From Escherichia coli (GTDB lineage Bacteria; Pseudomonadota; Gammaproteobacteria; Enterobacterales; Enterobacteriaceae), in the NCBI RefSeq assembly GCF_030384885.1, contig NZ_CP128613.1: 64,000 nt of DNA; one strand, 5' to 3'. The notes under the pieces are model-generated. The model made no database searches. It was not told the DNA's origin and saw nothing but the letters and a program-made list of their open reading frames with translations. A program made the position numbers and the translations under genes. Shown here piece by piece: positions 33,258 to 33,458 of this stretch. Numbering within the stretch: position 1 is the first letter of the stretch; every line of letters begins with the position of its first letter.

Positions 33258-33458
33258 TGCCGGATGCGGCGTAAACGCCTTATCCGGCCTACAGTTCGAT
33301 GCGATTCGTAGGTCAGATAAGATACGTCAGCATCGCATCCGACAATAAGTGCCGGATGCGGCGTAAACGCCTTATCCGGCCTACGGTTCGATGCGATTTG
33401 TAGGTCGGATAAGATGCGTCAGCATCGCATCCGACAATAAGTGCCGGATGCGACCAAC
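33258..33458. repeat. tandem duplication (about 2.2 copies of a 92-bp unit) of a BIME composed of two REP palindromes
   Basis: Units 33258-33349 and 33350-33441 are near-identical (tgccggatgcggcgtaaacgccttatccggcctac ... catcgcatccgacaataag); a partial third copy runs 33442-33458. Confidence 0.9.

Follow-up and report, generated by a model that had tools for sequence, protein, structure and literature searches.

A probable BIME-2 cluster with a variable number of units between the convergent genes ybhC and ybhJ of Escherichia coli

In the window studied here (the whole 64,000-nucleotide stretch of Escherichia coli DNA that was analysed), a tandem array of inverted REP palindromes lies between ybhC and ybhJ, two convergent genes. 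We hold with high confidence that the array is a BIME-2 cluster of two 92-bp units and a truncated end, that it is a long-standing resident of Escherichia whose size changes by whole units, and that its roles would be those known from its family. BIME-2 has been defined by z2 and y REPs, multiple tandem copies, and a number of copies per locus that varies between strains (Ton-Hoang et al. 2012, PMC3333891). In the array, y and z2 REPs alternate in inverse orientation, and the tandem copies vary between strains (2.1 copies here, 0-3 units in E. coli, and 5 in E. albertii).

Position and REP anatomy of the array

Tandem Repeats Finder detected one array at 33258..33452, with a period of 92, 2.1 copies, 96% matches, 0 indels, and a score of 362. 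By repeat search, the array of 195 bp was divided into unit 1 (33258-33349, 92 bp), unit 2 (33350-33441, 92 bp, 88/92 identical to unit 1, with mismatches at the remaining 4 positions), and the first 11 nt of a third unit (33442-33452, TGCCGGATGCG), which form a truncated y REP on the minus strand. The match to the unit is lost from 33453 on. A first-pass annotation of the window had proposed two near-identical 92-bp units and a partial third copy, and both searches agree with it; the extent that it gave, 33258-33458, has the correct start, but its end lies 6 nt too far.

The array lies between ybhC (31959..33242, plus strand, stop codon TAA at 33240-33242) and ybhJ (33475..35736, minus strand, stop codon at 33475-33477). 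The two genes were delimited from the list of open reading frames and from the RefSeq annotation of NZ_CP027579.1, a genome identical to the window, and of K-12, from which the gene names were also taken. The mechanical reading frame of ybhJ reaches 35760, and the annotated length of 2262 nt would put the end of the gene at 35736. Both sources thus confirm the convergent arrangement that had been proposed for the neighbors of the array. A spacer of 15 nt (33243..33257, plus strand) separates the ybhC stop codon from the first REP, and its length is equal in all the BIME-bearing Escherichia alleles examined. Another mechanical reading frame (33391..33705, plus strand, 104 amino acids) has its start within the unit-2 z2 REP and crosses the 3' end of ybhJ in the antisense direction; we dismissed it as a gene on its position alone.

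From the start of each unit, 35 nt belong to a y REP and 15 nt to the tail-to-tail linker; a z2-type REP of 37 nt in the reverse orientation follows, and 5 nt of head-to-head linker complete the unit. The inverted pair of REP palindromes that had been claimed for each unit is thus indeed present. The order on the plus strand is y (inverted), z2, y (inverted), z2, and partial y. In unit 1, the y-type REP (33258..33292, minus strand, 35 nt) is followed by the tail-to-tail linker AGTTCGATGCGATTC (33293..33307, 15 nt), the z2-type REP (33308..33344, plus strand, 37 nt, with 5' GTAG and two G>A changes), and the head-to-head linker ATAAG (33345..33349, 5 nt). In unit 2, the y-type REP (33350..33384, minus strand) is identical to that of unit 1, and is followed by the tail-to-tail linker GGTTCGATGCGATTT (33385..33399, 15 nt), which equals the linkers of K-12 unit 1 and of the single unit of EDL933, then by the z2-type REP (33400..33436, plus strand, 37 nt) and again by ATAAG (33437..33441, 5 nt).

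The published REP classes of E. coli are y (35 nt), z1 (29 nt), and z2 (37 nt), all preceded by GTAG and with an AA/GC bulge in the stem. The 35-nt palindrome of the array, TGCCGGATGCGGCGTAAACGCCTTATCCGGCCTAC, ends in CTAC on the plus strand, which is GTAG on the minus strand; its stem is formed by GCCGGAT/ATCCGGC, then the AA-GC bulge, and then an inner stem of GGCG/CGCC. With their length, GTAG, and bulge, the REPs at 33258-33292 and 33350-33384 belong to the y type. The 37-nt palindrome, GTAGGTCGGATAAGATGCGTCAGCATCGCATCCGACA, begins with GTAG, and the REPs at 33308-33344 and 33400-33436 have the length, GTAG, and AA/GC bulge of the z2 type, although as a variant and not as the canonical z2. 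Compared with the z2 half of the Rfam model and with the z2 of the K-12 REPtron, three base pairs of the stem have changed in a compensatory manner (C-G to T-A, T-A to G-C, and C-G to T-A). The foot of the variant is GTCGGAT, as against GCCTGAT in the canonical form, and the TnpA-REP type I site is absent from it.

In the 64-kb window, 5 copies of the REP core pattern GTAGGYCDGATAAG were found where chance would give 0.03, and 4 of the 5 are in the array. The palindromes are not unique to this locus: every E. coli genome has dozens of places that match the region. On these grounds (the GTAG REP core in four palindromes, and matches at dozens of places per E. coli genome), we set aside the readings of the region as a CRISPR, a tRNA, or an insertion sequence. 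The sole other REP site in the window, at 52469-52545, consists of a canonical z2-type REP (TGCCTGATGCGACGCTGCGCGTCTTATCAGGCCTAC) and then a degenerate second REP ending in GCATCCGACA. It adjoins a terminator-like hairpin at approximately 52420-52447, on the downstream side of that hairpin.

The REP pair at the middle of the array also resembles a known RNA. The head-to-head pair formed by the y REP of unit 2, the linker, and the z2 REP of unit 1 (33311..33381, minus strand) scored 71.9 bits with the Rfam model of naRNA4 (RF02564), above the gathering score of 59.5, and the y copy of unit 2 (33350-33381), identical in sequence to that of unit 1, agrees with the y half of the naRNA4 consensus at 32 of 32 aligned positions. 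The remaining REP junctions scored 22-43 bits, below the gathering score. As naRNA4 itself derives from REP325, which is a BIME-2, the region could be regarded as the gene of a naRNA4-type RNA, non-coding and nucleoid-associated, that works with HU to condense the chromosome. We consider such a gene very improbable. The Rfam model is a plain y-z2 REP pair; any BIME-2 will therefore match it, and the score is evidence of homology between REP pairs and not of a distinct gene. In addition, the linker is 6 nt shorter here than in the model, 0 sigma-70-like promoters were found in 33100-33600, and a 2026 preprint found no measurable nucleoid compaction by REP325/naRNA4, which acted instead as a local terminator and stabilizer.

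Unit number and history of the element

We compared the locus among 5,426 complete E. coli genomes, retrieved representative alleles, and split them into units to define the allele classes. No unit is present in 508 of the genomes (about 9%; the BIME-free allele), one unit in about 2,000, and two units with the K-12-type junction in at least 2,797; the two-unit allele of the window type was found in about 13. Between 4,858 and 4,863 of the 5,426 genomes cover at least 80% of the BIME-containing queries. In an evenly spaced sample of 58 genomes, 31 had two units, 21 had one, and 6 had none. One-unit strains include EDL933, AH19D088, PCN033, and MFDS1022581, and the single unit of the last equals unit 2 of the window, with flanks as in the window. 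K-12 and IAI1 have two units, of which the second is a diverged 93-bp copy. Three units were found in N96 (retrieved locus 444-767), in which the GTAG of the third-unit z2 is mutated to ATAG; this genome was picked out by the span of its match to a synthetic five-unit query, which is unusable for ranking copy number. The expectation that copy number differs between isolates was thus borne out among the complete E. coli genomes, with states of 0, 1, 2, and 3 units.

These counts also bear on whether the second copy in the window could be an artefact of assembly, by expansion or collapse of a repeat. Assemblers can in principle miscount repeats; however, the array is just 195 bp long and its units differ at 4 positions, and each of the 0-, 1-, 2-, and 3-unit classes occurs in independently assembled genomes. 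The window is 100% identical only to 2013C-4282 and, across the spacer region, to R32_14_1F, and 11 further complete genomes, from different hosts and laboratories, have the same type of allele at about 98% identity. We see virtually no chance of an artefact.

The coding flanks of the array in the window are unusually diverged for core genes of E. coli. The last 300 nt of ybhJ (33475-33775) are 94-96% identical to those of K-12, EDL933, and even the strains with a BIME of the window type, and the end of ybhC (32943-33242) is 96% identical to that of K-12 and 99% identical to those of the window-type strains. This pattern of flank divergence suggests that recombination had a breakpoint at the BIME or close to it.

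To look beyond E. coli, species-representative genomes were scanned with a pattern from the 3' end of ybhC. At the same site, the type strain of E. albertii has five 93-bp units, E. whittamii has one, Escherichia sp. E1V33 has two, of which the second has the y' variant of K-12, and two divergent species representatives named 'E. coli' have one each. All the BIME-bearing alleles examined, those of the other Escherichia species included, have 15 nt between the ybhC stop codon and the array, and end in the truncated y. The truncated y is therefore the old end of the array and not a by-product of a recent duplication, and, with array ends conserved throughout Escherichia, the element must be old and its copy number must have changed repeatedly. 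It has occupied this exact site since before the split of E. coli and E. albertii, with its distance of 15 nt to the ybhC stop codon unchanged.

The spacer holds other structures outside Escherichia. In Salmonella diarizonae, Citrobacter sedlakii, and Citrobacter MGH106, ordinary terminator hairpins are found between ybhC and ybhJ, and in C. gillenii and Citrobacter sp. Res13, a different, Citrobacter-type head-to-head REP pair is found there. The spacer seems to have been colonized independently by different REP families.

The differences between units hold a record of their relationships. The types of the tail-to-tail linkers suggest that the ancestral array had at least three units; the first pair would survive in the window, the last pair in K-12, and the middle unit in EDL933. 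Both units of an array have the same z2 loop variant, but lineages differ in it (K-12, CAA; the window, TCA; 1919D3, CCA), which indicates homogenization or recent copying.

It could be argued that the two units of the window arose by a recent duplication in the lineage of the strain, from a one-unit allele such as that of MFDS1022581. The single unit of that strain is identical to unit 2 of the window and has the same flanks, and 11-nt direct repeats (TGCCGGATGCG) flank a single unit and could seed a first duplication. Fresh events do happen: strain 1919D3 (retrieved locus 464-695) has two units on an EDL933-like one-unit background, and, since these are 100% identical, they indicate a very recent and independent duplication. 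Nevertheless, units 1 and 2 of the window differ at 4 positions, and the linker of unit 1 (AG-TTCGATGCGATTC) is of the type found in K-12 unit 2 and in the units of E1V33 and is no copy of the unit-2 linker. Two old units from an ancestral array of at least three fit these data better, in which case the allele of MFDS1022581 would be a contraction. A recent origin of the second unit in the window is thus rather unlikely in our judgment. When the first-pass annotation called the unit 'duplicated', it was right that two units stand in tandem, but the recent event in the strain that the word implies is disfavored by the linker variants, which suggest old paralogues from a longer ancestral array.

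Changes by whole units would most likely come about when the 92-bp direct repeats undergo unequal homologous recombination or when replication slips between them. The first duplication of a one-unit allele could be seeded by the 11-nt direct repeats on both sides of the unit. The REP transposase TnpA-REP (RAYT) may also contribute to the gain and loss of units. Each unit has, per strand, one copy of its type II cleavage motif, taken from the published description (plus strand, 33286 and 33378; minus strand, 33314 and 33406). The spacing is 92 nt, and because the motif recurs at this interval, gain and loss mediated by RAYT would fit the data equally well. In IAI1, which is reported to have no tnpA-REP, a two-unit array is retained; RAYT is thus not needed for the maintenance of the array. 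No rayT gene was found in the 64-kb window.

Transcript ends and possible roles

The spacer of the BIME-free allele is 70-75 bp long (PD23, locus 444-513; GN02461, locus 444-518) and is homologous to the BIME allele in its last approximately 22 nt only. It provides each convergent gene with a strong intrinsic terminator (the two are crossed), and the first hairpin of this spacer was found in 0 of 50 outgroup loci. In the BIME allele, a scan of 33100-33600 for terminators gave just two weak 6-pair sites inside the REPs, on the minus strand, and none comparable to those of the BIME-free allele; a G+C-rich hairpin directly before a T-run, as in an intrinsic terminator, is not present. At 33450..33476 on the plus strand, there is a weak hairpin (-5.9 kcal/mol) followed by TTTTT. 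The strong terminator that ybhC has in the BIME-free allele shows a similar right arm and T-run, so this hairpin is probably a remnant of a terminator.

The REPs themselves are predicted to form stable hairpins. Folding energies are about -21 kcal/mol for the y REPs and about -19.5 kcal/mol for the z2 REP of unit 2, whichever strand is folded. Owing to its two G>A substitutions, the z2 REP of unit 1 (33308-33344) folds at only -7.0 kcal/mol on the plus strand, which corresponds to the ybhC-sense RNA, as against -15.2 kcal/mol on the minus strand (ybhJ-sense RNA), where G.U pairs are formed. Such strand-biased decay may be due to chance, or may hint at the strand whose structure is selected. 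The whole array folds on the plus strand into one long hairpin centered at the middle head-to-head junction (-116 kcal/mol, z = -10.2), and on the minus strand at -113 kcal/mol (z = -7.9).

When transcribed from either side, the hairpins would provide a structured 3' end on both mRNAs, which would slow 3'-5' exonucleases and partly stop read-through. The hairpins of the array would then take the place of the two ordinary terminators of the BIME-free allele. As DNA, the array may serve as a preferred gyrase site between the converging transcription units. By analogy with the family, it is likely that the array acts both as a 3'-end structure (an attenuator and exonuclease block) and as a gyrase site. 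Strong binding and cleavage of BIME-2 by DNA gyrase have been reported (Espeli and Boccard 1997). According to the 2026 preprint, convergent genes flank about 60% of the REPs of E. coli, and REP325 is a partial Rho-dependent terminator and an mRNA stabilizer. Convergent pairs with REPs had higher expression in that study in a context-dependent manner, and the effects of REPs on expression were strongly dependent on context, with no general effect on half-life. An influence on the mRNA stability of the flanking genes, as proposed in the first-pass annotation, would follow from published REP biology, in which REPs now figure as terminators and stabilizers that depend on context.

The array may instead be a selfish or neutral passenger, similar to a REPIN, with no role for ybhC or ybhJ and with a copy number that drifts freely. 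This explanation is itself compatible with the identification of the array as BIME-2. The states of 0-3 units coexist in healthy E. coli lineages, single REPs are decaying (the unit-1 z2 in the window, and the unit-2 y' in K-12), and REPs have been proposed to be non-autonomous elements mobilized by RAYT. However, the site has been kept since before the split of E. coli and E. albertii at a constant 15 nt from the ybhC stop codon, and Citrobacter species have put a REP pair of their own in the same spacer. REPs between convergent genes correlate with higher expression. The BIME-bearing alleles have no good intrinsic terminator, from which it follows that something in the array must end both transcripts. 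Weighing these points, we allow the neutral explanation a real but minor probability.

The distance to ybhC is of interest in its own right. A REP was reported to cause translational down-regulation or ribosome stalling when its distance from the stop codon is less than 16 nt (Liang et al. 2015 and 2016, as cited elsewhere). In the window, the first REP begins 15 nt past the ybhC stop codon and its paired stem 16 nt past it; the distance thus falls at the reported limit, and the distance measure of that study may differ from ours. In the most far-reaching view of the locus, the number of units would be a heritable dial on the expression of ybhC and ybhJ, the BIME would have replaced the terminators, and the 15-nt distance would have been selected so that the REP lowers the translation of YbhC. 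We give this view little credence. We found no literature that deals with ybhC, ybhJ, and REPs together.

Related repeat systems and significance of the locus

The array shares with the BIME-2 of Gilson, Bachellier and Hofnung the inverse alternation of y and z2, the short head-to-head linker, the tandem units whose number varies between strains, and the extragenic site at the 3' ends of genes. In the published layout, BIME-2 has a short S linker at the head-to-head junctions and an s, l, or r motif at the tail-to-tail junctions, and the linkers are known to vary in length and sequence. The head-to-head linker of 5 nt (ATAAG) and the tail-to-tail linkers of 15 nt were compared with the S, s, l, and r motifs by length and position only. 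The array differs from the typical BIME-2 in its z2 variant, with three compensatory stem changes from the canonical z2, and in having 2 units, whereas arrays elsewhere have up to 12 REPs. The BIME-2 that flanks rayT in K-12 (the REPtron) has, like the minus strand of the array, the order z2-iREP, tail-to-tail linker, y-REP, and short head-to-head linker, but its linkers are 17 and 12 nt long, as compared with 15 and 5 nt in the array.

REP325/naRNA4 (RF02564), the BIME-2 between yjdM and yjdN in K-12, resembles the array in forming a tandem array in a 3' untranslated region and in its y-linker-z2 pair, which in the array scores above the threshold of the family. REP325 has 12 palindromic units and lies between tandem genes, whereas the array has 4 and a fragment, lies between convergent genes, and has a linker that is 6 nt shorter; moreover, naRNA4 is defined as a discrete RNA that binds HU, whereas the array is known from its sequence.

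The REPIN-RAYT systems (Bertels and Rainey; Nunvar et al. 2010, PMC2817692) are based on an inverted REP doublet of about 90-100 bp that can form a long hairpin, and the array has such doublets and is able to form such a hairpin. It also shares with these systems the TnpA-REP cleavage motifs, vertical inheritance, and long life. The difference is that the changes of the array are local gains and losses of tandem units at one locus, with no dispersal to new sites.

The array is further removed from BIME-1 (RIP or RIB), which consists of y and z1 with an IHF-binding L linker. Both are built of REPs, including y, and both are found at the 3' ends of transcription units. As published, BIME-1 is a single-copy pair of y and z1 with a long L linker between them, often with an IHF site. 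The array has linkers of 5 and 15 nt, without a long L linker for an IHF site, contains no 29-nt z1 REP, and, unlike BIME-1, occurs in tandem copies.

Few repeats of E. coli were described earlier than the REP and BIME clusters, and this locus matters little as a discovery. The variation of BIME-2 copy number between strains is an already published property of the class, and the finding at this locus is therefore an ordinary one. What the locus offers is a natural allelic series of 0, 1, 2, 3, and 5 units within a conserved convergent gene pair, in which the 0-unit allele has ordinary terminators. The series could be used to test the effect of REP number on the termination, mRNA stability, and translation of the neighboring genes, and to test whether the gain and loss of units depend on RecA, slippage, or RAYT.
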